IMG/VR virus record: IMGVR_UViG_3300012953_000019
Span: 1 to 64,000 of that record
From: a virus
Length of the DNA: 64,000 bases
Strand: one strand, 5' to 3'
Shown here: piece by piece, positions 6,373-23,541 of the stretch
Position numbering within the stretch: the first letter of the stretch is position 1
Layout: each line of letters opens with the position of its first letter
The notes under the pieces: generated by a model
What the model saw: only the letters and a program-made list of their open reading frames with translations
Databases searched by the model: none
Told to the model about the DNA's origin: nothing
Position numbers and translations under genes: made by a program

Positions 6373-6380
6373 TATTTATA
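6373..6380 (-). promoter_or_regulatory. T4-type late promoter for the leftward 6254-1441 operon
   Basis: TATTTATA on + equals TATAAATA on -; intergenic, about 120 nt upstream of the ATG at 6254. Confidence 0.7.
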
Positions 6381-6405
6381 ATCAATCAATCTGTGAGAGG
6401 CTTAT

Positions 6406-6768
6406 ATGCGTATAATCCATACATACAACTCTTCAAAACGTAAGAAGACGCCTCGAGGTAAAGGTTGGCGAGAAAGAGAAGAGGCTCATCGCAAACACCT
6501 AAAAAAGTTAGGCATCGATCCAGATGCTAAACCCAAAAAGAAAAAGTTCGTTGAATACAAGCCAAAAATTTCTGCAAATCACCAGAGATCGATGGAGCAC
6601 CGTGATAAATACAAGAGTAAAGATGATGTGGGTGGTTCATGTCATAAGAAAGAACAAATGGTTTACACAGGTACATTGATTAAGGGTATAGCTACAATGC
6701 ACAAATCTAATGCCGTTCCTGTTATAAGCCAGAAACAAGCAGAAGAGATTTCGCGGATGGGAAAATGA
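6406..6768 (+). CDS. conserved basic phage protein of unknown function
   Basis: GAGAGG SD; the C-terminal YTGTLIKGIATMHKSNAVPV motif resembles proteins I recall from aquatic T4-like phages. Confidence 0.7.
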   Translation: MRIIHTYNSSKRKKTPRGKGWREREEAHRKHLKKLGIDPDAKPKKKKFVEYKPKISANHQRSMEHRDKYKSKDDVGGSCHKKEQMVYTGTLIKGIATMHKSNAVPVISQKQAEEISRMGK

Positions 6769-7496
6769 GAAAAGCTGTACTAAAACAAAACAACTCTTGG
6801 GCACCTATAACTTTACTTGTAGGACAATTAGTTGCACAACTATCATTGATACCAATGATCATGTATGCTCATGCATGGGAATGGATACCATTTACAATTA
6901 TGTATTGTGGTATGATGTTAGGCGTCACAATGGGTTATCATAGATATTGGTCACACAATTCTTTTAAGTGTCCTAAATTTATAGAATATATAATGTTATT
7001 CTTTGCTCATATTATGATGATTGGTCCAGCAATTACTTGGGCAGCCAATCACAGAGAACATCATAGATATGCTGACACAGAAAAAGATCCTCACTCACCA
7101 CACTACAGAGGATGGCTTCTTGCATATTTTGGACAAGTTCTAATTAACATCAACTTTAAATATGCAAGAGATTTACTCAAGAAAAAAATAATGAGAGATC
7201 AAGTAAAATATTATTGGTATGTTATATTCATTTGGGCAGGAATATTATTTGCAATAGACCCACTTGCCTTAATATATGCATGGTTAGCACCAGCAGGTGC
7301 CGCTAAGTTAATTGGCTCTTTTGTCTTTACATATTCACATAGAGGTAAAGAAGCACATAGTGATACTTGGTTAGGTCTCATAACACTCGGTGAAGGATTT
7401 CATAAAGCACACCACGATCATGGCAATAGACAAATTCTATGGCATAGATTTGATATCGGAGGACAGTTGATCAGACTTATTGATAAAACTGCGTAG
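6765..7496 (+). CDS. membrane acyl desaturase (delta-9-like, His-box family)
   Basis: His boxes HRYWSH, HREHH and HKAHH, the D-T-E-K-D-P-H-S-P motif, and transmembrane segments. Confidence 0.9.
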   Translation: MRKAVLKQNNSWAPITLLVGQLVAQLSLIPMIMYAHAWEWIPFTIMYCGMMLGVTMGYHRYWSHNSFKCPKFIEYIMLFFAHIMMIGPAITWAANHREHHRYADTEKDPHSPHYRGWLLAYFGQVLININFKYARDLLKKKIMRDQVKYYWYVIFIWAGILFAIDPLALIYAWLAPAGAAKLIGSFVFTYSHRGKEAHSDTWLGLITLGEGFHKAHHDHGNRQILWHRFDIGGQLIRLIDKTA

Positions 7497-7498
7497 AT

Positions 7499-8197
7499 AT
7501 GAATTTTAAATATGTACCCTTTGTGGCTGATAGATTTGATTATGATTATTGTATAACACATCCGTATCGCAATCAATTAGAAGCACACCCAATTGCAAAT
7601 GAAGATGACATGGCTTTGCTCCATGAGCATCTTACGGACTGGGAAAAAGCTATTATCATTGCAGGAAGTTATTACTTTATTTGGGATAGCTATGATCAGA
7701 AAAGAATAACAGAGCAATCGGACAAACTAATCAGTATTGAAGACTGTGAATTCTCTTCAGATGTCCATGCAAACTCTGCCACCCTTATTAAAGAGTATGT
7801 GGAAACATATCAAGGTACTTTCAGTTTCTTGATGGGTAACAACGACTATAGACCCAAAGCAGATAGCTACTTTAAACACGCACATCAATCCACGGAGATT
7901 GACGGTGAAACATACGAAGATACTTTCACGATTATCTATCCGATACATCTAGAAAATGATGTTATAGAAGAATTCAAAATTTTTTATGTGGAAGAAGAAG
8001 GAATTTACAAGCTATTAAAAGCACCATTAACTTATCCAGAAGGAGAAGTCAAAAGTATAAAATTTCCTAAAAAAGGTGAAGCACTCTTAATACATTTTAA
8101 TTCATGTAAGGGTATTCATTGGGTAGATGGTCTTACAAATAATAACTTTATGGCTCACGCATTTGATTCTGTGATAATGAGGAAAGAACTATGTTGA
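7499..8197 (+). CDS. hypothetical protein, possibly a cupin/2OG-Fe(II)-like fold
   Basis: HAH...(beta strands)...IHWV spacing is suggestive only. Confidence 0.3.
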   Translation: MNFKYVPFVADRFDYDYCITHPYRNQLEAHPIANEDDMALLHEHLTDWEKAIIIAGSYYFIWDSYDQKRITEQSDKLISIEDCEFSSDVHANSATLIKEYVETYQGTFSFLMGNNDYRPKADSYFKHAHQSTEIDGETYEDTFTIIYPIHLENDVIEEFKIFYVEEEGIYKLLKAPLTYPEGEVKSIKFPKKGEALLIHFNSCKGIHWVDGLTNNNFMAHAFDSVIMRKELC

Positions 8198-8892
8198 AGA
8201 AACGAGATTTGCCTGTTGTTGCTCCTATTCCAGGAATACGATTTAACTTGGATAAGATTAAAGAAGAACTTGCTAAGATAGAACATCTATGGGAAGACAT
8301 CTATAAAGCTAATCCCGGTATAACAAAATTACATGATCCATCTTTTGTTGATAATGCATATGCAAACTTAAAAGAGATTCCTTTGATGGTAATGTCGCCA
8401 GAAAATATGGCAAAAGCTGATGACTTTGAACTTGAAGATTTGGGTGCTACTCTTAGAGAAAGAATTCGCAATAAAAAAGCAAAGGGTGATAACTTACCAC
8501 CAACTGCAAATGAGATGTTGTGGGATTATCAGACTGATGCTTGTAAGGGTACTTACTTTGAAGAAGCATTATCAGGACACTTTTCTGCGCCAGTTTGCCG
8601 CGCTAGACTACACTTTCTTGCGCCGGGTATGAGTTTACAACCACATATTGATTATGATCCCTCATATGGTGTTAGAATAGTTTGTCCTATATCAGGTACA
8701 GATGAATGTATTAATCAGTTTTGGGTAAACGGCGAATATAAAGAATATAATTTACCAGCAGATGGTAGAGTTTGGTTCTTGAACACAGGATTTAAACATG
8801 GCGTAGTAAATAATGGTACCGAACCACGTATTGCATTATTGGCAACATTGAAGAGTCAGGAAGATATAGAATGTTTGAAATTAGTATCATAG
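8191..8892 (+). CDS. aspartyl/asparaginyl beta-hydroxylase-like 2OG-Fe(II) oxygenase
   Basis: LQPHIDYD (HxD)...RIVCPI...WFLNTGFKHGVVNNGTEPRIAL (distal H and R). Confidence 0.8.
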   Translation: MLKKRDLPVVAPIPGIRFNLDKIKEELAKIEHLWEDIYKANPGITKLHDPSFVDNAYANLKEIPLMVMSPENMAKADDFELEDLGATLRERIRNKKAKGDNLPPTANEMLWDYQTDACKGTYFEEALSGHFSAPVCRARLHFLAPGMSLQPHIDYDPSYGVRIVCPISGTDECINQFWVNGEYKEYNLPADGRVWFLNTGFKHGVVNNGTEPRIALLATLKSQEDIECLKLVS

Positions 8893-9518
8893 AATATGAT
8901 GGTTCTAAAAAAGTAAGAGAACAGATAGAGAACTTTAGAGAGTTATCTTTTAAAGAAGGTAATGACAGTTTGGCATATGACAAATATGATCCCGACAAAA
9001 CTGGTCAGACATTCTTAAATTATGTTGATGACAAATTGGCTTCATTGAGTGTTATAGAACCAAGTCATTATACGAGTGATCCAGATGTAGCCGCTAGAGG
9101 TTGCAGACTTCACATTGCTACTGAATTTAGACCAGCTTGGTTAGGATTACTTCATGCACCTAAACAAATTATGTGGGCAGAAAAAAACGGCTTTAAGGTA
9201 TTTTATTTTACGCATGATATTCGTAACAGGGCGATCAATGCAATGTATCAGAAGCGAAGATTTGGAGCCGCTGTAACTGAGTTACAAAAACAAATGGAAT
9301 GGATGTGGACTTCAGATTGGTACCAAGATTTGTCTCTTGATACTAGATTGTTGTTTCAAGTTGATGAAAGGTCTGACTTGTTACAATACGTTTACTATTG
9401 GACACTTGAAGATGGTTACGTATGGCAACCACCTAGTAATGTTGTTTGGTATGAACATAATGGTAGAATAAAATCCAGTGTATCAGAAAAGGAAATAATA
9501 AATGCACATAAGCGATAA
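8871..9518 (+). CDS. GNAT-like acyltransferase
   Basis: RGCRLHIATEFRPAWLG resembles GNAT motif A; beta/alpha pattern is compatible. Confidence 0.45.
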   Translation: MFEISIIEYDGSKKVREQIENFRELSFKEGNDSLAYDKYDPDKTGQTFLNYVDDKLASLSVIEPSHYTSDPDVAARGCRLHIATEFRPAWLGLLHAPKQIMWAEKNGFKVFYFTHDIRNRAINAMYQKRRFGAAVTELQKQMEWMWTSDWYQDLSLDTRLLFQVDERSDLLQYVYYWTLEDGYVWQPPSNVVWYEHNGRIKSSVSEKEIINAHKR

Positions 9519-10113
9519 AGTTGTAGTAAGTTGGTTCAACTTTCTCAGAGATAATGTAGATAACCCAGAAGTAACTAAAAGATATTACGAATGCTTTTGG
9601 GAAAGTCAATTAAAGAGTAAACAAATAGTATTAGATTTAATTGATTCTATGGACATATATCAATGTTATATTTTTGGTGGATGGTATGGTTTGTTAGCCC
9701 AGATACTTTCAGATACTAGGCGATCACATCATCCCATAGTATCTGTTGATATAGACCCTAAGTGTGAGATTGTAATTAATCAATACTTTAATCATGATGA
9801 AGGTATTGTTGCTAACACGGGTGATATGGCAACATATAAGTACAAGATTCGTCCTGATCTAGTTATCAATACAAGTACAGAACACGTTGATCAAAAAACT
9901 TATGATGCTTGGTATAATAATATACCATTAGATACTGAGTATATTGTACAAGGTAACAATCTTGTAATACCAGAACATATAAGACTTGCAGATGATATTA
10001 ATCATTTTAAAGAAATAAATCGATGCACTAAAGTTATTGAAAAAGTTGTTACAGACTGTCCTGGACCAAATGGCATATTTCAAAGATATACTATTAAGGG
10101 CGTTAAAGTATGA
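9502..10113 (+). CDS. class I SAM-dependent methyltransferase
   Basis: IFGGWYG glycine loop, VSVDIDP acidic strand, GDM, LVINTSTEH. Confidence 0.75.
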   Translation: MHISDKVVVSWFNFLRDNVDNPEVTKRYYECFWESQLKSKQIVLDLIDSMDIYQCYIFGGWYGLLAQILSDTRRSHHPIVSVDIDPKCEIVINQYFNHDEGIVANTGDMATYKYKIRPDLVINTSTEHVDQKTYDAWYNNIPLDTEYIVQGNNLVIPEHIRLADDINHFKEINRCTKVIEKVVTDCPGPNGIFQRYTIKGVKV

Positions 10114-11438
10114 CCCCAGTGGAATATTATGAAAAGATAAAGAAAGACTATGATAAGATTTCTCCTTCAATGTGTGTATTGAAGTGGGAACACCTAGAGA
10201 TGCATTTGGGTTCAGCACAAAGTCATTCTTGTTTTCATGTTCCAATGAAACATATAAACGAAGATGAAGACTTTCACAACACAGAACAGAAAAAAGAAGT
10301 ACGCAATCAAATGCTTGATGGTGTTAAACCATCTGAATGTTCATATTGTTGGAAAGCAGAAGATGCTGGTTCTTGGTCACCAAGAATAACACTAGCACCT
10401 ATTCATACATTAAAAGATAAAGACATTATAGCAAAGACTGCATCATTACCTAGAAATGCTGATGTATATCCGAAATATCTAGTAATGAGTTTCAATACTA
10501 AATGTCAATTAAAATGTTCTTATTGTGGGACTCAAAGTAGTTCTTCTTGGTACGAAGAAATTAAAAATGATGGTCCATGGGATGTAATATCTGATGAAAG
10601 TTCTCGTGGATATAATTTAAATGGTAGAGAAACCCTATATACAGGTGATGATAACGCTATGACTAAAAAGTTTTGGAAATGGATAAAAGAAGCAGTGATG
10701 CATCTACATACAATTAGACTTACTGGCGGCGAACCTCTGCTAAGTGAGAACACATTTAAACTTGCTAAGTTTATTAGAAATCATCCTAATGGAGAAAATA
10801 TTGAGTTTAATGTAAATAGTAATCTTTGTGTATCTGATAGACGAGTAGAAAGAATTATTGATACAATGAAAGATATGAAACAACCTAAAGTGTATGCTAG
10901 TATAGACAGTTGGGGACCTCAAGCAGAGTATATTAGACATGGATTAAATGTTGATATGTTTGAGCGCAATCTAGAAAAACTAGTAGATGCCAAAATAGAC
11001 GTTGGTATTATGTCTACTTTCAACTTCATGAGTATTCCAAATTACAAAGAATTGCTTGATGTTATTCTTGACTTTAAAGGACTTTCTTGGATTAAAGGAG
11101 ACGCAACTTTCTCTTTAGATACACCACACATGGTTTATCCAAAACATTTATCTGCATTGATTACAGACGATAAACAACTTGACAATCTACGTGAATTGGT
11201 GTATTATATGAGTACTCATGTAGACGATAATGATATTACTAAATTTAACTCGGGCGAGTATGCCAAGTTTGAAAGAGTACTACAGTGGGTAGAAACAAAT
11301 CGTTTTACTGGTGACGAATTGATCAAACATAGAAAAGACTTCAAAGCATTTGTTGATGAACACGACAAAAGAAGAGGTACAAATTTTATTGAGACTTTTC
11401 CTGAATTGAAGTATTTTTACGAGATGTGTAATGGCTGA
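10110..11438 (+). CDS. radical SAM protein with N-terminal SPASM/Twitch-like Cys cluster (paralogue 1)
   Basis: CVLKW...SCFH...ECSYCW; CQLKCSYC; TGGEP; C-terminal DKRRGTNFIETFPEL. Confidence 0.92.
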   Translation: MTPVEYYEKIKKDYDKISPSMCVLKWEHLEMHLGSAQSHSCFHVPMKHINEDEDFHNTEQKKEVRNQMLDGVKPSECSYCWKAEDAGSWSPRITLAPIHTLKDKDIIAKTASLPRNADVYPKYLVMSFNTKCQLKCSYCGTQSSSSWYEEIKNDGPWDVISDESSRGYNLNGRETLYTGDDNAMTKKFWKWIKEAVMHLHTIRLTGGEPLLSENTFKLAKFIRNHPNGENIEFNVNSNLCVSDRRVERIIDTMKDMKQPKVYASIDSWGPQAEYIRHGLNVDMFERNLEKLVDAKIDVGIMSTFNFMSIPNYKELLDVILDFKGLSWIKGDATFSLDTPHMVYPKHLSALITDDKQLDNLRELVYYMSTHVDDNDITKFNSGEYAKFERVLQWVETNRFTGDELIKHRKDFKAFVDEHDKRRGTNFIETFPELKYFYEMCNG

Positions 11439-12816
11439 AAAAGGAACGAATGAATATTGGATAGATGAATTAAAAGAAAAAAGAATTAAGATAAATGATA
11501 TAAGCCCCTCTTTTTGTTCTGCTAAATGGTTACAAACTACTCTGATGTTACAGAATGGTTATAATCACTCATGTCACCATCCTTCACCCCATAAAATTCC
11601 CGTAGAGGAAGTTTTGGCAAATCCTGCCGCCTTGCATAATAGTCAATATAAGAAAACTCAAAGAGATAAAATGCTCTGTGGTGATAGACCTAAAGAGTGT
11701 GACTATTGTTGGAAGATCGAAGACTTAGACAAAGAATACTTTTCTGATAGACATTATAAAACTGCCGATTGGTGGGCATGGGATAAAATAGATGAGATAG
11801 CAAATAGTGATCCTTATGATGATGTATATCCTACTTATCTAGAAGTATCATTTAGTAATGCTTGTAATTTTGCCTGTGCATATTGCTCACCTGAAATATC
11901 ATCTACTTGGATGCAAGATATTCAGAAAGACGGAATATATCCAGTTAAGTTTGGTTCACATGATTTGAATTATTTAAAAGAAGTTGGTAAGTTTCCATTC
12001 AAGAATAGTGAACCTAACCCATATGTTGATGCTTTTTGGAAATGGTTCCCCGATGCATTCAAGCATCTAAAAGTATTTCGCATAACTGGTGGCGAACCTA
12101 CAATGTCAAAAGATTTTTGGCGAACTGTTGATTATATTGTAGAACACCATCATGAAAATCCAGAACTTAAAATAGGAATCAATAGTAACTTAGGAACAGA
12201 CCCGCGTCTGATTGAAAGACTTATTGCGTCTGTTATAAGACTGGAATCGCATGGTATTGAAGTTGAGATATTCACAAGTGCAGAAAGTACTGGCAACAAA
12301 GCAGAATATGCCAGAGACGGTATTGTATATGATGAATGGATAGAAAACATAGAACGTATGTTGACAGAAACCAACTGTCGAGTTGTTATAATGACAACGG
12401 TAAATATACTATCAATATCTACAATGCAAGATTTCGTTCAAGACATAATGGACTTACGTATTAAGTTTAATCAAAACTTGGCACATAATAGAATACCTTT
12501 GAGTGTAAACTACTTACGTTATCCGCCACATTTACAATGTACTTTATTGTCTTCTGTTTATCGTGAAACAATGGCAAACAAACTAGAAGTATTTTGTGAA
12601 GGTTGGTTGAAGTATGACTCGCCAGATAAATTTGCCAGACTCTATCTAGAGGAGTTTGATCAGATAAAACGATTATGTGACTACCTGAGAACGGAGCCAG
12701 TTGCTGATAAATACAGAGAAGACTTTGCAAACTTTATACGTGAATATGATCGGCGTAGAGGAAAGAATTTTGAACAAACTTTTCCCGAATTGATTACAGA
12801 TATGGAGAAATGGTAA
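11431..12816 (+). CDS. radical SAM protein with N-terminal SPASM/Twitch-like Cys cluster (paralogue 2)
   Basis: FCSAKW...SCHHP...ECDYCW; CNFACAYC; TGGEP; DRRRGKNFEQTFPEL. Confidence 0.92.
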   Translation: MAEKGTNEYWIDELKEKRIKINDISPSFCSAKWLQTTLMLQNGYNHSCHHPSPHKIPVEEVLANPAALHNSQYKKTQRDKMLCGDRPKECDYCWKIEDLDKEYFSDRHYKTADWWAWDKIDEIANSDPYDDVYPTYLEVSFSNACNFACAYCSPEISSTWMQDIQKDGIYPVKFGSHDLNYLKEVGKFPFKNSEPNPYVDAFWKWFPDAFKHLKVFRITGGEPTMSKDFWRTVDYIVEHHHENPELKIGINSNLGTDPRLIERLIASVIRLESHGIEVEIFTSAESTGNKAEYARDGIVYDEWIENIERMLTETNCRVVIMTTVNILSISTMQDFVQDIMDLRIKFNQNLAHNRIPLSVNYLRYPPHLQCTLLSSVYRETMANKLEVFCEGWLKYDSPDKFARLYLEEFDQIKRLCDYLRTEPVADKYREDFANFIREYDRRRGKNFEQTFPELITDMEKW

Positions 12817-13043
12817 TGGCAGTAAAATATATTCATGTTAATATGCATAAAATTCGTGCCAATAGAAAGCACGGAACAAATGAACCCGTCTTAACTGTAA
12901 AAGAAGGAAGAAAAAATACTTACGGACATAGCGTAAAGATACATGGTCCTAGTGAGGTTATATATGGTGGTAATGATAAGCCATTATTGCCATGTGGTGC
13001 TAGAGTTGTTATTAAAACAGAAGCGGATGTGGACATTGACTAA
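12816..13043 (+). CDS. small conserved phage protein (75 aa)
   Basis: TAATG overlap and GGAGA SD favour the ATG at 12816. IHVN..KI..N.K.G..EPVLTVK...N.Y...V.I.GP...Y...KPL.CGARV pattern. Confidence 0.7.
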   Translation: MAVKYIHVNMHKIRANRKHGTNEPVLTVKEGRKNTYGHSVKIHGPSEVIYGGNDKPLLPCGARVVIKTEADVDID

Positions 13044-14541
13044 AGATAATGATTTAATTAAATACCGTAAAGATATTCTTGATACAAAATCTAAAAGTTT
13101 TTGTGGTGCAAAATGGTATAATGCTACGACTTGGCTAGGCAGTGGTACTACTGCATCTTGCCATCACCCGCCCGCACATAAAATTCCATTAGAAGAGATA
13201 ACAGTAGATCCATCTGCTATCCATAATACAAAGCACAAGAAAGCCATGCGTAAAATGATGCAACGTGGCGAAAGACCTAGAGAGTGTGAGTATTGTTGGA
13301 AAGTTGAAGACATGGAAACTGATGCTGTTAGTGACCGTGTATACAAGTCAATAATCTATACTGAAGATGACTTGAAAAAAGCACATGAAATGGATTACAA
13401 CGAAAGTGTTGATTTAAAAACATTTGAAATCTCTTTTGATCGTACTTGTCAACTGGCTTGTTCTTATTGTAACTCAAGTTTTAGTACTACTTGGGCAAAA
13501 GATATAACCAAGAAAGGTCCTTATCAAAATTTAGTATCTGATGGTGCTGGTGCATTTCAACATGATGGTGCGTGGGCAGAACCATATGGTAAAAGAGAAG
13601 AGAACCCATATGTAACTGCATTTTGGGAATGGTGGAATGATGGCTTATCTAAAAGTCTAGAAGAACTGCGTGTTACTGGTGGTGAGCCTTTAATGTCTGA
13701 TCAAGTTTGGAAACTGTTTGATTGGTTCGGCGAAAACAAAACAGATATGAGATTTGCAATCAATTCAAACTTGATGGCAAAAGATTCGCTTATTGATGAA
13801 ATGATTAAGAAGACTCAGAAGGTAGATCAGTTTCATCTTTATACTAGTTGTGAAGCGACTGGATTACAAGCAGATTATATTCGTGACGGACTACATTATG
13901 ACACTTGGAAAAACAATGTCTATAAAATATTGACTCATGGTAAACTTAGTGGTTGTAATATTATGATGACCATTAACAGTTTGTGTTTGTTTAGTATTAC
14001 TGATTTCCTCGATGATGTATATGATATGAAAATCCACACAGGAATGAAAGCACCTGTTGTTAGTTTAAACTTGTTACGTTTTCCTAGTTTTCAGTCGCCA
14101 CTTGCTTTACCAGATCATATTAAAGATCATTGTAGAAAGCAACTACAAGATTGGTGGGAAGAAAAGAAAGATTTAAAATTGTGGCATGAATTTGAGAAAG
14201 CTAGTATAGAACGTCTTATTGACTATCTTGTTACTGTTGACGCACCACATAGACGTACAAGTGATAAGATGACATTGTGGAGAGACTTTAAAACTTTCTA
14301 CGCTCAATATGATGAAAGAAGAGGTTTGTCATTATCTGTATTTCCTAAAATACTTACAGACTGGGTAGAAACTATTCCTACTACAGAAACTATTCCATTA
14401 AAAGAAATGATTGACGGAGACAGTACACGCCAATATGCTGATGATCCAGACTTAAAGAAAATTGCAGATGAGGAAGGTTGGGTTCTAGAACCAGATAGTA
14501 AAAACATTGATAAACCTTTGGCATCATATGACGAAGAATGA
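13027..14541 (+). CDS. radical SAM protein with N-terminal SPASM/Twitch-like Cys cluster (paralogue 3); start at 13027 ATG or 13036 TTG
   Basis: FCGAKW...SCHHP...ECEYCW; CQLACSYC; TGGEP. The track start at 12943 overlaps the upstream gene too far. Confidence 0.9.
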   Translation: MWTLTKDNDLIKYRKDILDTKSKSFCGAKWYNATTWLGSGTTASCHHPPAHKIPLEEITVDPSAIHNTKHKKAMRKMMQRGERPRECEYCWKVEDMETDAVSDRVYKSIIYTEDDLKKAHEMDYNESVDLKTFEISFDRTCQLACSYCNSSFSTTWAKDITKKGPYQNLVSDGAGAFQHDGAWAEPYGKREENPYVTAFWEWWNDGLSKSLEELRVTGGEPLMSDQVWKLFDWFGENKTDMRFAINSNLMAKDSLIDEMIKKTQKVDQFHLYTSCEATGLQADYIRDGLHYDTWKNNVYKILTHGKLSGCNIMMTINSLCLFSITDFLDDVYDMKIHTGMKAPVVSLNLLRFPSFQSPLALPDHIKDHCRKQLQDWWEEKKDLKLWHEFEKASIERLIDYLVTVDAPHRRTSDKMTLWRDFKTFYAQYDERRGLSLSVFPKILTDWVETIPTTETIPLKEMIDGDSTRQYADDPDLKKIADEEGWVLEPDSKNIDKPLASYDEE

Positions 14542-15832
14542 TTTATCTCCATATTTTTGTGTTGCGCCCTGGACTCATACGTATGTAAGTCCTCAAGGCG
14601 AAAGGCGCTTGTGTTGTGCTAGTAGAGAAGATGCTTCTTTTCAAAAACAATATATTGATTCTGGTGATAAAGCTGGTAAGTTTGAACCAGACACATTAAA
14701 AGAACATTGGAACAGTGAGTATATGAAAGATATACGTAAGCGTATACTTGCTGGTGAAAAGATATCACAGTGTGAGGTATGTAATAGTCAGTTATTAAAT
14801 CTTCATACATATAAACAGTACTTTACAGAAACATTGTTTCCACATAAAGTAGAAGATATAATTGCTAAAACTGAACCAGATGGTCATTATAATGATCTAC
14901 CCGTTTCTTATGATTATCGCATATCCAATCTATGTAACTTTAAGTGTAGAATGTGTGGTGATCAATTGTCTAGTAGTTGGGAAGCAGAAAATAAAAAGAA
15001 TGGTCGCTTACAAGATCAACCTTGGTTAGAACCAACAACTAGAAAAAATATAGACACATTTCAAAAAGAAGTTTTAGAAGAAGAACTTCAAGCCGCAGTA
15101 GATGAAAGACGTATTGAAGAAATCTATTGGGTTGGTGGCGAACCTCTTATGTGGGAACGTCATTGGACTATACTAGAACAATTAGTTTACGATGGTCAAG
15201 CAAAAGATGTTACTCTTAGATACAACACAAATTTAAGTAGAGTATCTTATAAGGGTATAGAATTGTTTGATCTTCTTCCTAAATTTAAGCACGTTAATTT
15301 ATGTGCGAGTATAGATGGAGTAGGAAAAGTTGGGGAATATATTAGAACCGGACTCAAATGGGAAGAGTGGTTGGAAAACTTCAAACGTGGTTTACCGCTT
15401 ATTAATAATTTTGGTAATGATGCCATGGTCTTTGATGTTACTCTTACTACTCCAGGATTATTTGGTCTTAAAGAACTCTTTGATGTTGTTACTGAACTTA
15501 ATGTAAAAACGTACTTCAAGTTCACTTTTGCATTTGATCCTAGTGTTGTTATGAGTCCTCTGTGTTTACCTAAAAGCATTTTGGAAGATACCGTACAAGA
15601 ACTGCTAGAATATATCGAACCCAGAATGACAGATAAGACTCATGTTTATAAAACATCTCTTGTGAATCTGTTGAATAGACAAACTTTTGAGGAGCAGTGG
15701 CCAGATACTTATAAGCAAGGAATAAAAAGTGGGAAAGGACATATGGAGTATATTGATAGTATACGAAATGATGACCTAAATTTTAGAGATACACTTTCTA
15801 ATGATGCAAAAATTTGGTGGGATTCTATATGA
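14528..15832 (+). CDS. radical SAM protein with N-terminal SPASM/Twitch-like Cys cluster (paralogue 4)
   Basis: FCVAPWTH...LCC...QCEVC; CNFKCRMC; VGGEP. Confidence 0.92.
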   Translation: MTKNDLSPYFCVAPWTHTYVSPQGERRLCCASREDASFQKQYIDSGDKAGKFEPDTLKEHWNSEYMKDIRKRILAGEKISQCEVCNSQLLNLHTYKQYFTETLFPHKVEDIIAKTEPDGHYNDLPVSYDYRISNLCNFKCRMCGDQLSSSWEAENKKNGRLQDQPWLEPTTRKNIDTFQKEVLEEELQAAVDERRIEEIYWVGGEPLMWERHWTILEQLVYDGQAKDVTLRYNTNLSRVSYKGIELFDLLPKFKHVNLCASIDGVGKVGEYIRTGLKWEEWLENFKRGLPLINNFGNDAMVFDVTLTTPGLFGLKELFDVVTELNVKTYFKFTFAFDPSVVMSPLCLPKSILEDTVQELLEYIEPRMTDKTHVYKTSLVNLLNRQTFEEQWPDTYKQGIKSGKGHMEYIDSIRNDDLNFRDTLSNDAKIWWDSI

Positions 15833-16380
15833 TGATTGTCATTGCAAATTATAGAACTGGCTCATCTACGCTGATTAAAAAGTTACATGAAGAAACTGGA
15901 CTCAAGTACTTTTCACAATTTACGGGTGAATGGTGTCATCCTGGAAATGGTGGTTATAAAAAGCCAGATTCTGATATAAAATTATATAAAATAATGCCTG
16001 ATAGTATTGGTCATAATAGATCGTTATTTAAAAAAGAATATCTTGAATGTGCTGATGATTTAATTTTTTGTTTAAGAAAAGACATAAAAGCCCAAGTTAA
16101 TTCTATGATGTATTCTGGTGCTTTTGACTGGTGGCATCCAGGAGATAAATTGCGAGACACAAGAAAAACACTTACCGATTATCATATTAAATCGTTAATA
16201 AGAACTATTAGTAATAATCTTAAACTTCAAAAAATGTGGTATAAAGAGTTTGGTGGTAAAATTATTTTTCTTGAAGATAGAAAAGATAATCACGAAAAAT
16301 ATGATAAACCAGATTTACTACTGGATATTCCAGACTATGATCTTGAAATAGTAGACGCAGAGAAATATTTTAATGAGTAA
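15829..16380 (+). CDS. sulfotransferase-like (P-loop fold) protein
   Basis: ATGA overlap start. MIVIANYRTGSSTL resembles the 5'-PSB loop, and CLRKD..AQVNS resembles the 3'-PB motif. Confidence 0.5.
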   Translation: MMIVIANYRTGSSTLIKKLHEETGLKYFSQFTGEWCHPGNGGYKKPDSDIKLYKIMPDSIGHNRSLFKKEYLECADDLIFCLRKDIKAQVNSMMYSGAFDWWHPGDKLRDTRKTLTDYHIKSLIRTISNNLKLQKMWYKEFGGKIIFLEDRKDNHEKYDKPDLLLDIPDYDLEIVDAEKYFNE

Positions 16381-17566
16381 AACTTTTTGCCCTTTACCAT
16401 GGACACATTTAGCAACTCACCCACAAGGTGAATTGACACTTTGCTGTGAAGCAGATCATACACAAGGTATTTCTGAGTCATTTGATACAGATGAATTTAA
16501 TCAAAGAAAGCCAAAAACACTACACACAACCAAATATGATTTTGACTTAATACAGAACAGTGATTCGTTTAGTAAAGTTAGAAAACAAATGCTTAACGGT
16601 GAAGAGCCTGTACAGTGTACGAGATGTTTCGATTTAGAAAAAGTAGGAATAAAATCAAAGAGACAGTATGAATCTGAGCGATTAAACTTTAATGAATTTA
16701 GAGCGATAGAGATAACGAATAAAGACGGTACAATAAATGATGTCTCATATGAATTTGTTGAGTTACGTTTGGGCAATCACTGTAACTTAGCGTGTCGCTC
16801 TTGCAACCCATTATCAACTAGCCGTTGGATAAAAGATTGGAATACTGTAAATCCAGATAACCCACTTTCTTATGATAAGAATCTTTTTAACTGGCCACTT
16901 GATACTGACTTTTGGGAAAAGTTGTTAGAACATTCTGATACTCTTAGATATGTTTACATCAATGGAGGAGAACCTCTTCTCATCGATAAACATAAACAGT
17001 TTTTAATTGATCTTGTAGAGACTGGTAGATCGAAAGATATTACGTTAGTATATTCTACTAACTGCACAGTTGTTAATCACACATATGAAGAAGTTTGGAA
17101 AAACTTTAAGCACGTACAACTTATGATATCAATCGATTGTTTGGAAGAAAGAAATTCTTTTATTAGACACCCATCAAAGTGGGATGTTATTACACAAACT
17201 TTAGAATGGATAAAAAAGATATGTGAAGCAGATAATATTTCATATAACATAATGCAAACGGTATCTACGTACAATATATTATATATGAAAGAGTTTCACG
17301 AATACTTTTCTTTTGCTCCATATATTTCTATGAACTTTGTTACTGATCCTTCTTATCTGGATCCTGCATTGTTGCCACAAAAAATAAAAGATGCTGTTGT
17401 TGCTAAATTTCCAAATCAAACAGTAATTGATTACTTGACAAAAGGCAAAAGTTCTGATAATATGACAGAGTTTTATCAGAAGACCTTAAAAATGGATGAA
17501 CTGAGAAACAATAACTTTAAACAAACTTTTCCAGAACTGCATGATATGGTAATTCAATATGTCTGA
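16373..17566 (+). CDS. radical SAM protein with N-terminal SPASM/Twitch-like Cys cluster (paralogue 5)
   Basis: FCPLPWTH...LCC...QCTRC; CNLACRSC; NGGEP; DELRNNNFKQTFPEL. Confidence 0.92.
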   Translation: MSKTFCPLPWTHLATHPQGELTLCCEADHTQGISESFDTDEFNQRKPKTLHTTKYDFDLIQNSDSFSKVRKQMLNGEEPVQCTRCFDLEKVGIKSKRQYESERLNFNEFRAIEITNKDGTINDVSYEFVELRLGNHCNLACRSCNPLSTSRWIKDWNTVNPDNPLSYDKNLFNWPLDTDFWEKLLEHSDTLRYVYINGGEPLLIDKHKQFLIDLVETGRSKDITLVYSTNCTVVNHTYEEVWKNFKHVQLMISIDCLEERNSFIRHPSKWDVITQTLEWIKKICEADNISYNIMQTVSTYNILYMKEFHEYFSFAPYISMNFVTDPSYLDPALLPQKIKDAVVAKFPNQTVIDYLTKGKSSDNMTEFYQKTLKMDELRNNNFKQTFPELHDMVIQYV

Positions 17567-18776
17567 TAAATTTTTCTGTGTAGCGCCATTCGTTCATCTA
17601 TATGCTCATACGACCGGTGAAGTAAAGACTTGTTGTGTTGGTAATACTACTTATGGCTCTTTAAAAGAAAAGACTATAGAAGAGATATGGCACAGTGACG
17701 AATATAAGAAGTTGAGAAGAGACTTTATTGCAGGAGAGATTACACCTGAACTAGCAAAAAATTGTAGTACTTGTATTAATTTTGAAAACTCTAATATTCA
17801 CTCTTTACGAGAAGGTCTTAATGATGAATTCAAAGCATTTGCTGAAATAGATGAAAATGCAGATGTGAATCTATTGTATATGGATTTTAGATTCAATAAT
17901 TTTTGTAACTTCAAATGTCGTGGATGTTATCATGAGTACAGTAGTTCGATTCATAATGAAGATAAAGGTTCTTCACAAGACCTTATCTTTGCTGGTAAGA
18001 CAGAAGAAGATTTGTTTGATCAAGTTTATCCTTATTTACCAGACGCACAAAAGATTTATTTTGCTGGTGGTGAACCACTAATTCAATGGGAACATTGGAA
18101 AATATTAGACAGACTAGAAGAATTGAACCGCACTGATATGAAACTTGTATATAATACAAATTTTAGTACCATGAAATATAAACAAAGACATATAACAGAA
18201 TATTGGAAAAAGTTTAGTGATGTAAAACTTTTGTTAAGTTTAGATGGTATGGAAAAAGGAGCAGAGTATTGGAGAAATGGTACTAAGTGGAATCAATTAG
18301 TAAAAAACATTAAGAAAGTTAAGAAAGAAACACCACACGTTTATATGGGAGTAACTTGTACTGTTGGATGGGCTAATCTGTATACTGCAATGGACTTTAT
18401 AGATTATTGTGCTGATAGTGCGAACCCTAACGATGTAGATGATTTTGAATTCTTAGATCCAGTAAGAATTAACATTAACGTGTTAGAACAACCAATACAC
18501 TTCTCAACTCAAAGTGTTCCTGATTGGAAAAAAGAAGAACTTGAAAAAAGAATCAGAAAAACCTATGATAAATACATTAGCATGGGATTTGAAGATGATT
18601 CTTTGTTGGCTAGAAATCTTGTTGCCTTAATTGATTTTATGTGGGCAAAAGAAGGAGATTCTAGAAGAATAAAAGGTGGTTGGGACCAGATAGTAACTAG
18701 AAGAGATGAATTGAGAGGTGAGAATTTCTTTGAGGCATTTCCAGAACATATAAACATGAAAGAGATAATTGAATGA
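17559..18776 (+). CDS. radical SAM protein with N-terminal SPASM/Twitch-like Cys cluster (paralogue 6)
   Basis: FCVAPFVH...TCC...NCSTC; CNFKCRGC; AGGEP; DELRGENFFEAFPE. Confidence 0.92.
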   Translation: MSDKFFCVAPFVHLYAHTTGEVKTCCVGNTTYGSLKEKTIEEIWHSDEYKKLRRDFIAGEITPELAKNCSTCINFENSNIHSLREGLNDEFKAFAEIDENADVNLLYMDFRFNNFCNFKCRGCYHEYSSSIHNEDKGSSQDLIFAGKTEEDLFDQVYPYLPDAQKIYFAGGEPLIQWEHWKILDRLEELNRTDMKLVYNTNFSTMKYKQRHITEYWKKFSDVKLLLSLDGMEKGAEYWRNGTKWNQLVKNIKKVKKETPHVYMGVTCTVGWANLYTAMDFIDYCADSANPNDVDDFEFLDPVRININVLEQPIHFSTQSVPDWKKEELEKRIRKTYDKYISMGFEDDSLLARNLVALIDFMWAKEGDSRRIKGGWDQIVTRRDELRGENFFEAFPEHINMKEIIE

Positions 18777-20038
18777 GTGATGATGTAATTTTTCCAATTA
18801 AGACTGCAACTTCTTGTCAGTTTAAATGGTCTTGGAGTACAATATTTTTATCAAAGGGTACGTCAACAAGTTGCCATAGATGTAACCACTGGGAATTTGA
18901 TTTAAGTACCATCAAAGACTTTCACAATCTTCCTGGTAAAGTGGGTGACAGAGAGAAGATGTTAGATGGCTTATGGCCAGGGAATGGTTGTGAGTATTGT
19001 AAGAAGATTGAAGATGCGGGTGGCTCCAGTGAGAGAACTGCTTGGATCAATAAGAAAGATTTGATACCACCAGAAATTGTTGCAGGTGATCTTAAAGCAA
19101 CTAAAGTTACACCACGTTTATTAGAAGTTTACTTTACCAACGTTTGTAATCAAGCGTGTACATATTGTACTCCTCAATTTAGTTCTGTTATCGAAGCAGA
19201 ATATAAAAAGCATGGACCTATTGCCGCTAACCCTAGTTATATGATACACAAAAGTGTGGATAACTATCCTCTATATCTACAAAAGTTTTGGGAATGGATG
19301 GTAGAAAATTCTCATCATCTCTATGAGTTTCAGACACTTGGTGGTGAGCCAATGTATCAAAAAGAATTCGATCAGTGTTTAGACTTCTTTGATAAACATC
19401 CTAATCCAAATCTTATTTGGAGAATCTTTAGTAACTTAAAACATGACGAAGAGAAATTTAAAAAGAAGATTCAAAAAGTAAATGATCTGATTGCTAAAAA
19501 GAAAATACGAGAGTTTCATATTGTTGCTAGTCAAGATTGTTGGGGACCACAAGCAGAGTATGCAAGATACGGAATGGACTTAAAAAATTGGGAAACAAAT
19601 TTGAGATATTGTTTATCTCAAGGTGTACCAGTTAATATACACATGACAATCAGTGCAATTACTGTACCCACTTTAGGTGATTTCATCGATAAGATTTATA
19701 GTTTACGTCAAGAATATAAAGCTGGATTGTGGATTAGTTCGAATACAATTGTTAGACCAGAATGTTTAGATCCTTATATATTTGGTGATAAAATTGCTTT
19801 CTACTTAGAAGAAGCAATCTCTAAAATTACTGATCCTAATGATAAAGAACAAAAAGAATGCTTAGAAGGCATTCTTAAAGGAATGAATACAAGTACTCTT
19901 AACGTACCACAAGTAATCGCATTTGAAAAATATTTAGATGCAATTGACTTGCGAAGAAATACAAACTGGAGAAAATTATATCCTGTTATAAGTGATATAG
20001 TAAAAGATGTTACGGAGAATATAATTGGCACTGGATGA
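18773..20038 (+). CDS. radical SAM protein with N-terminal SPASM/Twitch-like Cys cluster (paralogue 7)
   Basis: SCQFKW...SCHRC...GCEYC; CNQACTYC; LGGEP; DLRRNTNW. Confidence 0.92.
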   Translation: MSDDVIFPIKTATSCQFKWSWSTIFLSKGTSTSCHRCNHWEFDLSTIKDFHNLPGKVGDREKMLDGLWPGNGCEYCKKIEDAGGSSERTAWINKKDLIPPEIVAGDLKATKVTPRLLEVYFTNVCNQACTYCTPQFSSVIEAEYKKHGPIAANPSYMIHKSVDNYPLYLQKFWEWMVENSHHLYEFQTLGGEPMYQKEFDQCLDFFDKHPNPNLIWRIFSNLKHDEEKFKKKIQKVNDLIAKKKIREFHIVASQDCWGPQAEYARYGMDLKNWETNLRYCLSQGVPVNIHMTISAITVPTLGDFIDKIYSLRQEYKAGLWISSNTIVRPECLDPYIFGDKIAFYLEEAISKITDPNDKEQKECLEGILKGMNTSTLNVPQVIAFEKYLDAIDLRRNTNWRKLYPVISDIVKDVTENIIGTG

Positions 20039-21632
20039 TCCTTCAATATCTTTCGATCAAGGAGAAAAAATAATATCTTTGTTGGAGCATATGATCTGGT
20101 TGTTAGAAGATCAGAATTCCACAAAAGAGACTTCTTATAGAGAGTCTGGCACTTTGCCCATGCCCGCTTTTGGTAGATATGAACGTGCTGAATATCCTGA
20201 AATTTCTTTTAATGTATTCTTTGATAGATTCAAAGAAAGAATAGAGAATCCAAATGGTAATGGCAATCTTCTTTATCCACCTAATGGTAATGATAGTAAA
20301 GTTTTATATGATACTATTGCACCCCTGATGGGTGCCAACAGCGGTACTATTAGAATATATGATATTAAAGACTATGAATCTGCTTCAAAAACTTTTGGCA
20401 AAAATGATGTAAACATTTATCCGATAGATTTGTGGTTAGACTTTCCAAAAATGTTTGGTAATAGTATATCAAATATATCTGTTGAAGCAAGAGAGTTAAT
20501 TGCAGATAAAAAACTTTCCTTGTTCTTACTTCTTATGGGAGAATCTTTTGGTTGTGATGAGCACCATTGGATAAAAAAACTTTCTCAGTCGATTATAGGT
20601 CATGGACTTGCTGATAGTAAAATTGCAATTTCTTGTGCTGATTTAAAATTTAACAAAAATTATGAACAATGGTGTGAAGACAATCCTGAACTTACTAAAC
20701 AGTTTAAATTTAAGAACGTAGTTCCTTTTGAGTATTTTCAATCGTTATACTTACTGCAATATTTGAGCAGAACTGGTAGATGGATGCCAGAAGGTAAACC
20801 AGCAAAATATGCAACTGAAGGAACATTAAAACCTTTGTCTGAAGCGGAAGTAATGTTAAATGTTCCTAATTCAGACTCAAAGAAAAAAGATTTTATGTGT
20901 ATGAATGCTAGAATAAGACCACATAGAATTGCAATTGTATCAGAACTTCATAGATTAGGAATGCACGATAACTTCATTAGTTTACTATTTAGAGGTGAAT
21001 CAACAGATACTATTTTAGGCAGAGAAAAATTACATACATATATTAAAGAACAATTCTTTGAAAATGAAGAACAAGTTGAATGGTTTCAAACCATGTTTGT
21101 GAAAAATAGATTAAAAAGACGTATTATAATGGATGCCCACGAAGAAGTTATTAGCGATGATAGAATACTTAATAAGAAATATTTTGAAGAGTCTTATTTT
21201 AGTCTTGTAACCGAAACTAATTTTGGTTTACCTTTTTATGACAACCCAAAATTTGAGACTATGGGTAAGAAATCATATAATAAAACAATGTTTATTACAG
21301 AAAAAACTTTTAAGCCTCTTGCATATTTTCATCCAATACTTATGTTAGGATCTCCTGGAACTTTGGCTTTTTTACAAGCCGAAGGTTATGAGACATTTCC
21401 AGAAATGTTTGATGAGTCTTATGATTTGATGACAGATGACAAAGAAAGATTTAACGCTGTTGTTAATCAAGCATACACTTGGAGTAAAAAATCAGATGCA
21501 GATAAAAGAGAAATCTACGATAGTGTTAAGAAAAAACTACACCACAATCATGAACATTTTATAGGCAAATATAATAACTTGAAAAGAAGACAGACTAATT
21601 ATTTTAGATATATTGGAGGAGTACTCAGATGA
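20025..21632 (+). CDS. putative GT-B-fold glycosyltransferase (GT10-like TEK motif), paralogue A
   Basis: FMCMNARIRPHR; SYFSLVTET...ITEKTFKP...GYETFPEMFDESYD. Confidence 0.5.
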   Translation: MALDDPSISFDQGEKIISLLEHMIWLLEDQNSTKETSYRESGTLPMPAFGRYERAEYPEISFNVFFDRFKERIENPNGNGNLLYPPNGNDSKVLYDTIAPLMGANSGTIRIYDIKDYESASKTFGKNDVNIYPIDLWLDFPKMFGNSISNISVEARELIADKKLSLFLLLMGESFGCDEHHWIKKLSQSIIGHGLADSKIAISCADLKFNKNYEQWCEDNPELTKQFKFKNVVPFEYFQSLYLLQYLSRTGRWMPEGKPAKYATEGTLKPLSEAEVMLNVPNSDSKKKDFMCMNARIRPHRIAIVSELHRLGMHDNFISLLFRGESTDTILGREKLHTYIKEQFFENEEQVEWFQTMFVKNRLKRRIIMDAHEEVISDDRILNKKYFEESYFSLVTETNFGLPFYDNPKFETMGKKSYNKTMFITEKTFKPLAYFHPILMLGSPGTLAFLQAEGYETFPEMFDESYDLMTDDKERFNAVVNQAYTWSKKSDADKREIYDSVKKKLHHNHEHFIGKYNNLKRRQTNYFRYIGGVLR

Positions 21633-22774
21633 GAATTGGGTTTATTGGTTTTGGTAAATTGGGTCAGCCATGCGGAGAAGTAATTTCAGAAAAAGGACAT
21701 GATGTAGTTGCATATGATGTAGCCGATATAGACACCACTGTAGAAATGAGAGATTCTATAGAAGAGACTGTTAAAGATAGAAATATTGTATTCATTGCTG
21801 TACCTACACCACACGATCCAGCATATGATGGTAGCGCACCAACATATCATTTACCACCAAAAGACTTTTCATATGACATTGTAATTGATGTTATAAAAGA
21901 AGCAAACAAACACATGAATAAAGATCAATTATTGGTTCTTATAAGCACTGTGTTGCCGGGTACTGTACGTAGAGAGTTTGTACCATTAGTTACTAACACT
22001 AGGTTTGTATATAATCCATATTTGATTGCTATGGGTACAGTGGCGTGGGATATGGTAAATCCAGAAATGGTAATGATAGGAACAGAAACGGGAGAGACAA
22101 CAAAAGAAGCTGGTGAACTTATTTACTTTTATGCGACTATTATGGAAAATGATCCTCGCTATGTTGTCGGTACTTGGGATGAGTGTGAATGTATTAAAGT
22201 ATTTTACAATACGTTTATTAGTGCCAAGATCGGTCTTGTAAATATGATACAAGATGTTGCAGAAACACAGGGCAATATTAATGTAGACGTTGTTACTGAT
22301 GCACTCAAAGATAGTACTCAAAGAATTATGGGTCCGTCTTACATGAAAGCTGGAATGGGAGATGGTGGTGCTTGTCACCCAAGAGATAATATTGCACTAA
22401 GATATATGGCAAATGATTTAAATTTGAACTACGATCTTTTTGCAGAAATAATGAAAGCAAGAGATATGCAAGCATCGAATATGGCATCGTCTATACTTAA
22501 TTTTGGAGATAAGATTTACTTTACTTCAGACAGTTACAAACCAGGTGTTTCATATACTGCGGGTAGTTACAGTCTATTAGTACAAGAGTATGTGAAAGAA
22601 CTGGAAGGTGAAATAGTAAATGATATTACAGAAGCAGATGTCATTGTTCTTGTACACCCAGAAGAAACTACAGCAGAAGAACTTGGCAAATACCAAGTTA
22701 TATTTGATCCGTGGAGAAAATTTAAAAGCGATACAAACGAAGTAGTACATTATGGTAATACGAGAATGCAATGA
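21629..22774 (+). CDS. ugd: UDP-glucose/GDP-mannose 6-dehydrogenase family protein
   Basis: GFIGFGKLG Rossmann motif, FIAVPTP, STVLPGT, KVFYNTF, catalytic GDGGACHPRD. Confidence 0.9.
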   Translation: MRIGFIGFGKLGQPCGEVISEKGHDVVAYDVADIDTTVEMRDSIEETVKDRNIVFIAVPTPHDPAYDGSAPTYHLPPKDFSYDIVIDVIKEANKHMNKDQLLVLISTVLPGTVRREFVPLVTNTRFVYNPYLIAMGTVAWDMVNPEMVMIGTETGETTKEAGELIYFYATIMENDPRYVVGTWDECECIKVFYNTFISAKIGLVNMIQDVAETQGNINVDVVTDALKDSTQRIMGPSYMKAGMGDGGACHPRDNIALRYMANDLNLNYDLFAEIMKARDMQASNMASSILNFGDKIYFTSDSYKPGVSYTAGSYSLLVQEYVKELEGEIVNDITEADVIVLVHPEETTAEELGKYQVIFDPWRKFKSDTNEVVHYGNTRMQ

Positions 22775-23541
22775 CTCTTGAGCAAAAAATAAAAGACTAT
22801 TGGAATGCTCAACCCTGTAATATCAATCATAGTAAAGAACCTTTCGGTACTGTAGAATACTTTGACAGTGTAACCACTAAACGCTACAAAGCTGAACCAC
22901 ATATATTAGATTTTGCGGGGTTTCATCTGTGGCGAGGCAAACGTGTTTTAGAAGTAGGATGTGGTATTGGAACTGATGCAGAGCAGTTTATGCGACACGG
23001 AGCAGAATATACTGGCATTGATATCAGTGACGAAAGTTTGCGTATTTGTGAACAACGGATTAATGTACAAGGATTAAAGGGTAAGTTTATTAATCGAAGT
23101 GCTACTGAAAATTTGGAAACCCTTGGCAAGTTTGATTTAGTATATAGCTATGGTGTATTACATCATTATCCAAACATAGAACAATCTATACAAAACATTC
23201 ATGATGTGATCAATCCTAATGGTGAATTTAGATTTATGGTGTATGCTAAGGACAGTTGGAAATATTCTATGATTCGTAAAGGATTGGATCAGTTTGAAGC
23301 CCAAGCAAATTGTCCATATGCTGAAGCATTCACGAAGAATGAAATAGAACTCTTATTGAAAGATGACTCTTGGAAAATTGAAAGGTTGCGTCAAGCACAT
23401 TGTTTCATGTATAATGTAGAGAAGTACAAAAAAGGAATTTTTGAATTTGAACCATGGTTTGAATCAATGTCTGAAGTTATGCGTGAAGCAGTAAGAGAGT
23501 ACCTAGGTTGGCACCTTCTTGTTAAAACACGTAGGATTTAA
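22771..23541 (+). CDS. class I SAM-dependent methyltransferase
   Basis: VLEVGCGIG, TGIDIS, FDLVYSYGVLHH. Confidence 0.9.
   Translation: MTLEQKIKDYWNAQPCNINHSKEPFGTVEYFDSVTTKRYKAEPHILDFAGFHLWRGKRVLEVGCGIGTDAEQFMRHGAEYTGIDISDESLRICEQRINVQGLKGKFINRSATENLETLGKFDLVYSYGVLHHYPNIEQSIQNIHDVINPNGEFRFMVYAKDSWKYSMIRKGLDQFEAQANCPYAEAFTKNEIELLLKDDSWKIERLRQAHCFMYNVEKYKKGIFEFEPWFESMSEVMREAVREYLGWHLLVKTRRI

Follow-up and report, generated by a model that had tools for sequence, protein, structure and literature searches.

A seven-gene radical SAM array in a marine phage

The window analysed here, the first 64 kb (64,000 nucleotides) of the IMG/VR record IMGVR_UViG_3300012953_000019, contains an array of seven genes for radical S-adenosylmethionine (SAM) enzymes in which a cysteine-rich auxiliary module stands ahead of the catalytic core. 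The source record has 116,286 bases, is ~70% complete according to CheckV and represents an uncultured marine T4-like myovirus, with gp59, gp32 and a tail protein common to T4-like cyanophages as its T4-like markers and with TATAAATA late-type boxes preceding the structural genes from 40 kb onward. The seven open reading frames (ORFs), all of them on the + strand and, by ORF listing and translation, all intact, span 10110-20038 and fall into two subfamilies, A and B. In order along the strand, they are A1 (10110-11438, 442 aa), A2 (11431-12816, 461 aa), A3 (13027-14541, 504 aa), B1 (14528-15832, 434 aa), B2 (16373-17566, 397 aa), B3 (17559-18776, 405 aa) and A4 (18773-20038, 421 aa), the last a divergent member of its subfamily. 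The length of A3 is counted from the start at 13027, which is the likely one because a start at 12943 would overlap a 77-aa ORF.

That 77-aa ORF (12810-13043, +, between A2 and A3; phrog_8676, E 1e-18) and a 188-aa ORF (15814-16380, +) lie within the interval without belonging to the enzyme set. The original prediction, made from the letters of the window alone, had assigned the whole interval to seven radical SAM paralogues; the paralogues stand, but the two additional ORFs have to be added to the account. The 188-aa ORF gave zero matches to Pfam, PHROG or NCBIfam; its lead to a sulfotransferase is weak, one Atlas neighbour cluster having PF09037 (Sulphotransf) in 12% of its members and an RTGSS motif being spotted by eye, and a 36% homologue is found in L031 (labels of this form denote related loci and contigs). 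Across the 116-kb record, there are at least nine radical SAM genes: the seven of the array, one at 34789-36291 and one at ~106.2 kb.

Domain order and family assignment

In the alignment of the seven proteins (alignment A1), the invariant columns are C22, C41, C77 and C80 in the N-terminal part; C132, C136 and C139, forming the CX3CX2C motif; GGEP at 206-209; and D419 and R422 near the C terminus. The N-terminal cysteine set, CxxxCxxC, GGEP and D-x-x-R had all been read from the translations beforehand, and ORF listing and alignment confirm each of them for the seven starts. Subfamily A (the genes starting at 10110, 11431, 13027 and 18773) has C-x-x-KW, SC(H/F) and C-x-YC, and subfamily B (14528, 16373 and 17559) has FC-x-x-P(W/F)-x-H, CC and C-x-x-C. 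The paralogues are mutually only 22-35% identical, and the division into two subfamilies, also proposed earlier, is an ancient one: in a quick IQ-TREE tree of 73 phage and bacterial members, A and B separate as 32 versus 41 rows, with a value of 100 on both sides in the Shimodaira–Hasegawa-like approximate likelihood ratio test (SH-aLRT).

The auxiliary module is recognisable in the domain matches. In all three B proteins, the Pfam domain SPASM (PF13186) is found at approximately residues 6-93, ahead of Radical_SAM (PF04055); against the gathering score of 21.5 bits, B1 (31.3 bits; SPASM at 18-93 and Radical_SAM at 138-294) and B3 (38.0 bits; SPASM at 7-72) lie above and B2 (19.1 bits) just below. 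SPASM and twitch domains have been described as C-terminal extensions of the radical SAM barrel (PMC9012708). When the seven were tested for membership of the canonical SPASM/twitch subgroup (BtrN, MoaA, anSME and PqqE), in which the auxiliary domain is C-terminal, they fell outside it, the domain being N-terminal in every one of them, and the claim that the module is placed ahead of the core thus holds.

All seven proteins match the NCBIfam model NF033640 ("N_Twi_rSAM, twitch domain-containing radical SAM protein") at 213-348 bits, with a cut-off of 170: A1 scores 294.9 bits, A2 305.6, A3 291.1, B1 347.3, B2 348.5, B3 315.5 and A4, which retains all seven cysteines, 213.2. The matches run end to end, from model positions 1-3 to 393-398 of 398, and were confirmed on the DNA; a chance match is excluded because the E-values lie between 1e-63 and 1e-104 for each ORF. 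Other NCBIfam radical SAM models, those for peptide maturases included, all stay far below their own cut-offs for the seven. Among 159 non-identical members from phage and bacterial loci, the auxiliary cysteines (four in A and five in B, the fifth being the extra one of the CC pair) and those of CX3CX2C are each 97-100% conserved, and a set of four or five conserved cysteines would fit one auxiliary [4Fe-4S] cluster.

The permuted domain order is already catalogued as NF033640, by name only. The architecture is therefore no new discovery, and tandem arrays prove to be usual in phages and Bdellovibrionota (below). In the literature, we found neither a paper on an N-terminal twitch/SPASM enzyme nor a characterised member of NF033640, and a profile of B2 orthologues (subfamily B) retrieved no PDB sequence at E ≤ 1e-3. 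NF033640 is thus a name without a studied member, and membership gives no function; nor do the seven cluster with one characterised family of the same activity, an outcome that had been listed in advance as one that would speak against the original idea.

Selection, age and distribution

All seven copies are retained under purifying selection. The ratios of nonsynonymous to synonymous change (dN/dS, Nei–Gojobori) against orthologues are 0.072 for A1 (against L028), 0.054 for A2, 0.059 for A3, 0.069 for B1, 0.072 for B2, 0.148 for B3 and 0.066 for A4; in these comparisons, dS is 0.2-1.7, with some values near saturation, and dN is far below dS throughout. That divergent copies are retained had been part of the original prediction, and with ratios of 0.05-0.15, none of the seven departs from it.

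Six of the seven, all but A1, have one-to-one orthologues in the same order in the 166-kb relative L013, at 67-92% amino acid identity (92% for A2, 90% at equal length for A3 and 86% for A4), and orthologues of A2, A3, B1 and B2 are also present in the 356-kb contig L009, at 46-67%. A1 is missing from both L013 and L009; it is found at 97% identity in L027-29 and at ~49% in L030-33. In the tree, six paralogues each have a strongly supported orthologue clade, and A1 groups with two phage sequences at an SH-aLRT of only 91. Phage and bacterial sequences stand together in the A3, B1 and B2 clades (more loosely in the B3 clade), and the clades of A1, A2 and A4 consist of phage or assembly sequences only; given the clades of mixed source, the paralogues are older than the split of these phage lineages.

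Tandem multicopy arrays are usual for the family, in contigs of marine T4-like phages as well as on chromosomes of Bdellovibrionota. Related viral loci, found with a hidden Markov model (HMM) of the seven, mostly carry 4-8 tandem copies; for the searches of genome contigs, the alignment of B2 orthologues was used, the seven-paralogue alignment being too divergent as a query. At least one copy is present in 45 of the 201 sampled Bdellovibrionota genomes, many of them with eight or more, and one metagenome-assembled genome (MAG) of this group has ~24 copies over the cut-off. L025, where eight copies adjoin Obg, RsfS and ribosomal protein L21, is a genuine chromosome. The seven-paralogue profile has matches (E ≤ 1e-30) to 6,073 clusters at 50% identity in a representative library of 1.84 billion proteins. 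A search for plasmid-borne homologues gave none, and the matches to GenBank phages, namely Vibrio phages K566, K567 and D479 and Ralstonia phage RsoM2USA, are only ~25% identical. The annotation of the K566 locus offered no lead to a function; in this jumbo phage (L060), which has three distant homologues, the last of the three is followed, ~5.6 kb downstream, by a gene (21978-22427) annotated as the lipid A acylation protein PagP.

The order of the copies follows a few patterns: ABBA in L020, L022, L023 and L026; AABB in L009-12, L034, L035 and L041; and AAABBBA in the phage of the window. B-only arrays are found in L052-55 and L058. Natural fusions of two or three units (A-A, A-B and B-B, 750-1200 aa) make up 22 of the 150 best representatives, with CX3CX2C intact in each unit; the fusion proteins fall within representatives P0204-P0340, and two of them were confirmed as uninterrupted table-11 ORFs (L061, 7721-10423; L062, 1807-4224). 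Among full-length copies in the Bdellovibrionales array L026, an ORF of ~200 aa (6904-7539) shares homology with just a part of subfamily A (26-33% over ~100 residues); it looks like what is left of a truncated copy.

A viral genome of T4-like type, obtained from the environment, had already been reported to carry 12 radical SAM genes (Nishimura et al. 2017, PMC5332604). There, the genes were tied to phage Fe-S assembly genes, and neither a function nor a family was proposed for them; in the 116-kb record studied here, an Fe-S assembly A-type carrier (PF01521) was not found.

Structural relatives

The AlphaFold2 model of B2 has a mean predicted local distance difference test (pLDDT) score of 93.8, and its matches to solved radical SAM enzymes are confined to the barrel. 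The highest-scoring include anSME (4k36, Z 11.7), viperin (Z 11.2), CteB (Z 11.1; 5wgg, Foldseek E 2e-7) and BlsE (Z 10.8), at 14-16% identity; SkfB, SuiB, ChlB, GDGT-MAS (Z 10.1) and AprD4 (Z 7.5) are also matched.

Two groups of characterised enzymes come close to the array proteins. BtrN, SpeY, BlsE and AprD4 are twitch-type enzymes acting on (amino)sugars or sugar nucleosides, BlsE being a sugar-nucleoside decarboxylase. The likeness lies in a barrel combined with one SPASM/twitch-type auxiliary cluster module, in our case a predicted one, and the array genes likewise stand in a sugar-handling context; unlike the array proteins, however, these enzymes have the module at the C terminus, and the identity is only 9-21%. 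The auxiliary cluster of BtrN is fully ligated by four cysteines and is probably the electron acceptor in a two-electron oxidation (PMC9012708). Full ligation of the BtrN kind would suit the four invariant N-terminal cysteines. Their spacing, too, is presumably similar to BtrN's. The second group, the SPASM maturases and anSME (CteB, SuiB, SkfB and AtsB/anSME), includes the best structural matches, and the B proteins match Pfam SPASM; these enzymes differ from ours in having the cysteines of two auxiliary clusters instead of one and a module that is C-terminal instead of N-terminal, and the array has neither a RiPP recognition element (RRE; RiPP, a peptide made on the ribosome and modified post-translationally) nor a precursor peptide.

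The phage operon

The array sits within a tightly packed same-strand block of ~23 kb, from 6406 to ~29410. First in the block comes the gene for a small phrog_27048 protein (+), and near the head of the operon are genes for two O2-dependent enzymes, a di-iron protein of the FA_desaturase family (6765-7496, +; PF00487, E 7.4e-15) and a cupin-type Asp/Arg beta-hydroxylase-like protein (8191-8892, +; PF05118, E 1.9e-5, 25.0 bits with a cut-off of 22.6), both with orthologues in L013, L031 and L032. The original prediction had remarked on oxygen-sensitive Fe-S enzymes lying beside O2-dependent oxygenases; the Pfam matches bear out the proximity, but it is not anomalous. Several unannotated ORFs fill the space between the hydroxylase-like gene and the array.

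Behind the array, the operon continues with a GT-B glycosyltransferase-like, GT10-like gene (paralogue 1, 535 aa; 20025-21632, +), a member of the UDP-glucose/GDP-mannose dehydrogenase family (21629-22774, +; PF03721 and PF00984, E ~1e-16; phrog_9148, E 3e-94), a class I SAM-dependent methyltransferase (22771-23541, +; Methyltransf_12/25/11, E ~1e-18), a second GT-B-like paralogue (424 aa; 23519-24793, +; 315 bits with the HMM of alignment A5 and BLAST matches to the L013 paralogues), a NodU/NolO-type carbamoyltransferase (24901-26325, +; PF16861, E 3e-54, and PF02543, E 3e-33; phrog_1601, E 2e-98), a 233-aa ORF, a third GT-B-like paralogue (416 aa; 26956-28206, +; 214 bits with the same HMM and 75% to its L013 orthologue) and two more ORFs. 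A relaxed-E Pfam search of the unannotated operon ORFs gave only noise. A GT-B member follows the array not only in the window but also in L013, L027-29, L030, L032 and L033; in L009, it lies inside the array, after the fourth copy. Beyond the block are genes for PhoH, a Cas4-like nuclease, a transfer-messenger RNA (tmRNA)-like molecule, a cell-wall hydrolase and an NAD epimerase/dehydratase (31833).

The modelled structure of the 535-aa protein (AlphaFold2, pLDDT 87) has a GT-B fold with its two Rossmann domains. The top structure matches (VIA-align) are all GT-B proteins: Helicobacter pylori alpha1,3-fucosyltransferase (2nzx, Z 12.0, 295 residues aligned), T4 beta-glucosyltransferase (1c3j, Z 11.3), GtfC, TarM and SenB (Z 9-10.6) and T4 alpha-glucosyltransferase (Z 8.9). 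The best of these is a GT10 enzyme, within 1 Z unit of the T4 beta-glucosyltransferase; at the sequence level, there is no Pfam match, to GT10 or otherwise, at E ≤ 0.01, and a low-score Atlas lead (0.77) goes to PF00852 clusters.

A sigma70-like promoter (TTGACA-17-TATACT, 6342-6370, +), with 11 of 12 consensus positions the best site in 6200-26000, is located in the gap before the first gene of the operon. On the + strand, no TATAAATA late-type box is found between 6400 and 33575, the first being at 33576. As a sigma70-like site precedes the operon and + strand TATAAATA boxes are absent until 33576, the operon looks early rather than late, and a host-type (early) promoter is probably where it starts. 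The promoter region is a divergent one: a TATAAATA late-type box on the opposite strand (6373-6380, -) faces an operon on the minus strand (1441-6254); it overlaps sequence immediately downstream of the 6342-6370 site.

Bacterial neighbourhoods

For the bacterial context, we sampled 132 ORFs outside the N_Twi family within 5 kb of arrays at 15 Bdellovibrionota loci. Their Pfam matches count 34 other Radical_SAM proteins, 11 Glycos_transf_2 (with further GT2-like ones), four DegT sugar aminotransferases, four SPASM, two PMT_2 and two B12-binding; in L026, an epimerase/dehydratase gene is directly upstream of the array. The neighbours of Bdellovibrionota arrays thus show the hallmarks of glycan loci, although the link is not universal. 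The bacterial MAG locus L023 (1-14800) has, along with its ABBA quartet, a gene for a 246-aa conserved unknown protein (62% to L020 7310-8065), and the quartet adjoins a tyrosine integrase and CagX, TrbI and TraG genes; it looks like the cargo of an integrative conjugative element.

Proposed radical tailoring of sugars and its alternatives

We lean, with a little more confidence than doubt, to the view that the seven NF033640 members, each of them functional and maintained on its own, tailor a sugar or glycan from the same operon by radical chemistry, working in parallel or one after another; the substrate, the chemistry and the target are what we infer. A sugar-bearing target is the most likely one because the array is set in an operon of sugar-handling enzymes. 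Each paralogue would cleave SAM reductively at the CX3CX2C cluster, and the 5'-deoxyadenosyl radical would take a hydrogen from a particular sugar carbon, either in a nucleotide-sugar or in a sugar already built into an oligosaccharide. As in BtrN, four conserved cysteines are available to the auxiliary cluster, which would accept or return an electron, and the attacked position might end up as a keto group, epimerised, deoxygenated or joined through a new C-C bond. The positions or sugars may be divided among the paralogues, which would act in parallel or sequentially and possibly in loose association, and a tailored glycan on the virion, the host envelope or another acceptor would be the candidate product.

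Several observations weigh against this view. The closest solved folds include peptide-modifying enzymes, and the GT-B neighbour resembles the T4 DNA glucosyltransferase nearly as well as it does the fucosyltransferase. In the bacteria, all-against-all BLAST of the neighbours gave no non-radical-SAM partner conserved across the loci; the ABBA quartet of L023 has no sugar genes nearby and is found in an apparent integrative conjugative element, beside integrase and type IV secretion system genes; and the ten ORFs flanking the AABB array of L035 have zero Pfam matches. Finally, the total of sigma70-like sites is not above the shuffled expectation, and the promoter is a consensus match only.

One alternative concerns the way the paralogues work together: the A- and B-type proteins could form an obligate hetero-oligomer, one multi-subunit machine acting on a single substrate. 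Compact arrays that join both types in fixed order (ABBA, AABB or AAABBBA) speak for such a machine, as do the fusions of two or three units, and the latter suggest that neighbours can work in close proximity. On the other hand, the B-only arrays exist without any A partner, the close relative L013 lacks A1 and keeps the rest, A1 being present or absent between near relatives, the copy number ranges from 4 to 8 between lineages, and each unit, even within a fusion, retains its own complete SAM cluster motif. We consider the obligate machine unlikely and favour independent, position-specific tailoring enzymes, perhaps loosely associated.

The other alternatives concern the substrate. As peptide or protein maturases, the enzymes could crosslink, epimerise or oxidise a protein of the phage or its host, in a RiPP-like manner or on virion proteins, and the nearest solved structures do include CteB, anSME, SuiB, SkfB and ChlB, with Pfam SPASM matching subfamily B. 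The other hallmarks are lacking, however: Pfam and NCBIfam give no RRE or PqqD-like domain, and there are only ~5-25 residues ahead of the first cysteine; neither the phage nor the bacterial loci have a precursor-like ORF that is conserved alongside the arrays; and every NCBIfam peptide-maturase model remains far below its cut-off. A maturase function appears quite unlikely.

We see little room for DNA hypermodification, in which, as happens in T4, the GT-B proteins would glycosylate a modified base, its attached sugar being tailored by the radical SAM enzymes. The phage is T4-like, the promoter is of early type, and the GT-B model matches the T4 beta- and alpha-glucosyltransferases (Z 11.3 and 8.9), all of which would suit this explanation; the 116-kb record, itself only ~70% complete, nevertheless has no gene of the thymidylate-synthase family (dCMP/dUMP hydroxymethylase), such a gene is also absent from G206, a 91%-complete, 161-kb array-bearing relative, and the genes around the bacterial arrays (GT2, DegT and PMT_2) are of the sort usual for envelope glycans.

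Viperin-like synthesis of modified nucleotides or modification of envelope lipids with the desaturase-like and LpxO-like hydroxylases is very improbable: the weak core matches of B3 (NF038283, E 1.7e-10; PADLOC pVip, E 1.7e-11), the structural match to viperin (Z 11.2), a weak match to a tetraether lipid synthase model, GDGT-MAS (Z 10.1) and the FA_desaturase and Asp_Arg_Hydrox genes heading the operon can be cited for it, but the NF038283 scores are 15-40 bits (best 40.5, for B3, over the core only) with a cut-off of 180 and those of PADLOC pVip at most 42 bits, and therefore fit generic core similarity, and one nucleotide product would hardly account for seven diverged paralogues together with three glycosyltransferases. 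A defence system was considered separately and rejected; PADLOC gave only the weak pVip core matches and no match to a defence-system model.

Returning to the tailoring of sugars, we can tentatively go one step further, to a possibility that we hold more doubtful than not: the array may be the core of an undescribed glycan biosynthesis in which permuted-twitch enzymes, sometimes fused and perhaps associated, serially edit sugars by epimerisation, oxidation, deoxygenation or C-C bond formation. If this were true, a heavily reworked carbohydrate would be made by marine T4-like phages during infection and by Bdellovibrionota, and the family, with its more than 6,000 clusters at 50% identity, would hold a wealth of new radical chemistry on carbohydrates. 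Among known reactions on unactivated C-H bonds, some of the hardest are the work of twitch and SPASM radical SAM enzymes, and four to eight diverged copies side by side imply many distinct specificities. A phage that devotes ~10 kb to seven enzymes under purifying selection must gain from their product, and the identity of that product would reveal new enzymology and a new route by which phages and Bdellovibrionota alter a glycan or another sugar-bearing target. The compact, tightly packed operon, probably read by the host polymerase, makes a practical target for expression.

Other features of the record

The 77-aa ORF between A2 and A3 was tried as a precursor peptide and rejected, since its family, phrog_8676, occurs in many phages without a radical SAM B2 match (tblastn, E ≤ 1e-5). 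It is of some interest in its own right: its amino acid identity to the L033 counterpart is 89% despite near-saturated synonymous sites (proportion of synonymous differences, pS, 0.62; dN/dS 0.05), it is far more conserved than its neighbours, and it is absent from the close relative L013. No function is assigned to phrog_8676; homologues of the ORF are found in Methylophilales phage Melnitz (68%), in Pelagibacter phage HTVC111P, where the annotation is 'DNA-binding protein', and in Agrobacterium and Brevundimonas jumbo phages.

The radical SAM gene at 34789-36291 (+), directly after gp32, encodes a 500-aa protein of another class, with B12-binding (E 1e-4) and Radical_SAM (E 8e-8) matches. 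Beyond the operon, an extended sigma70 site that fits the consensus perfectly (TTGACA-17-TATAAT, TG upstream) is present at 30255-30283 (+), at the start of the Cas4-like nuclease ORF, and ~90 bases downstream, inside the same ORF, a 16-bp perfect hairpin is found at 30374-30409 (+). Between the Cas4-like nuclease and cell-wall hydrolase genes, ARAGORN predicts a permuted two-piece tmRNA gene (30947-31286, +) with the tag peptide ANDEVFALAA.

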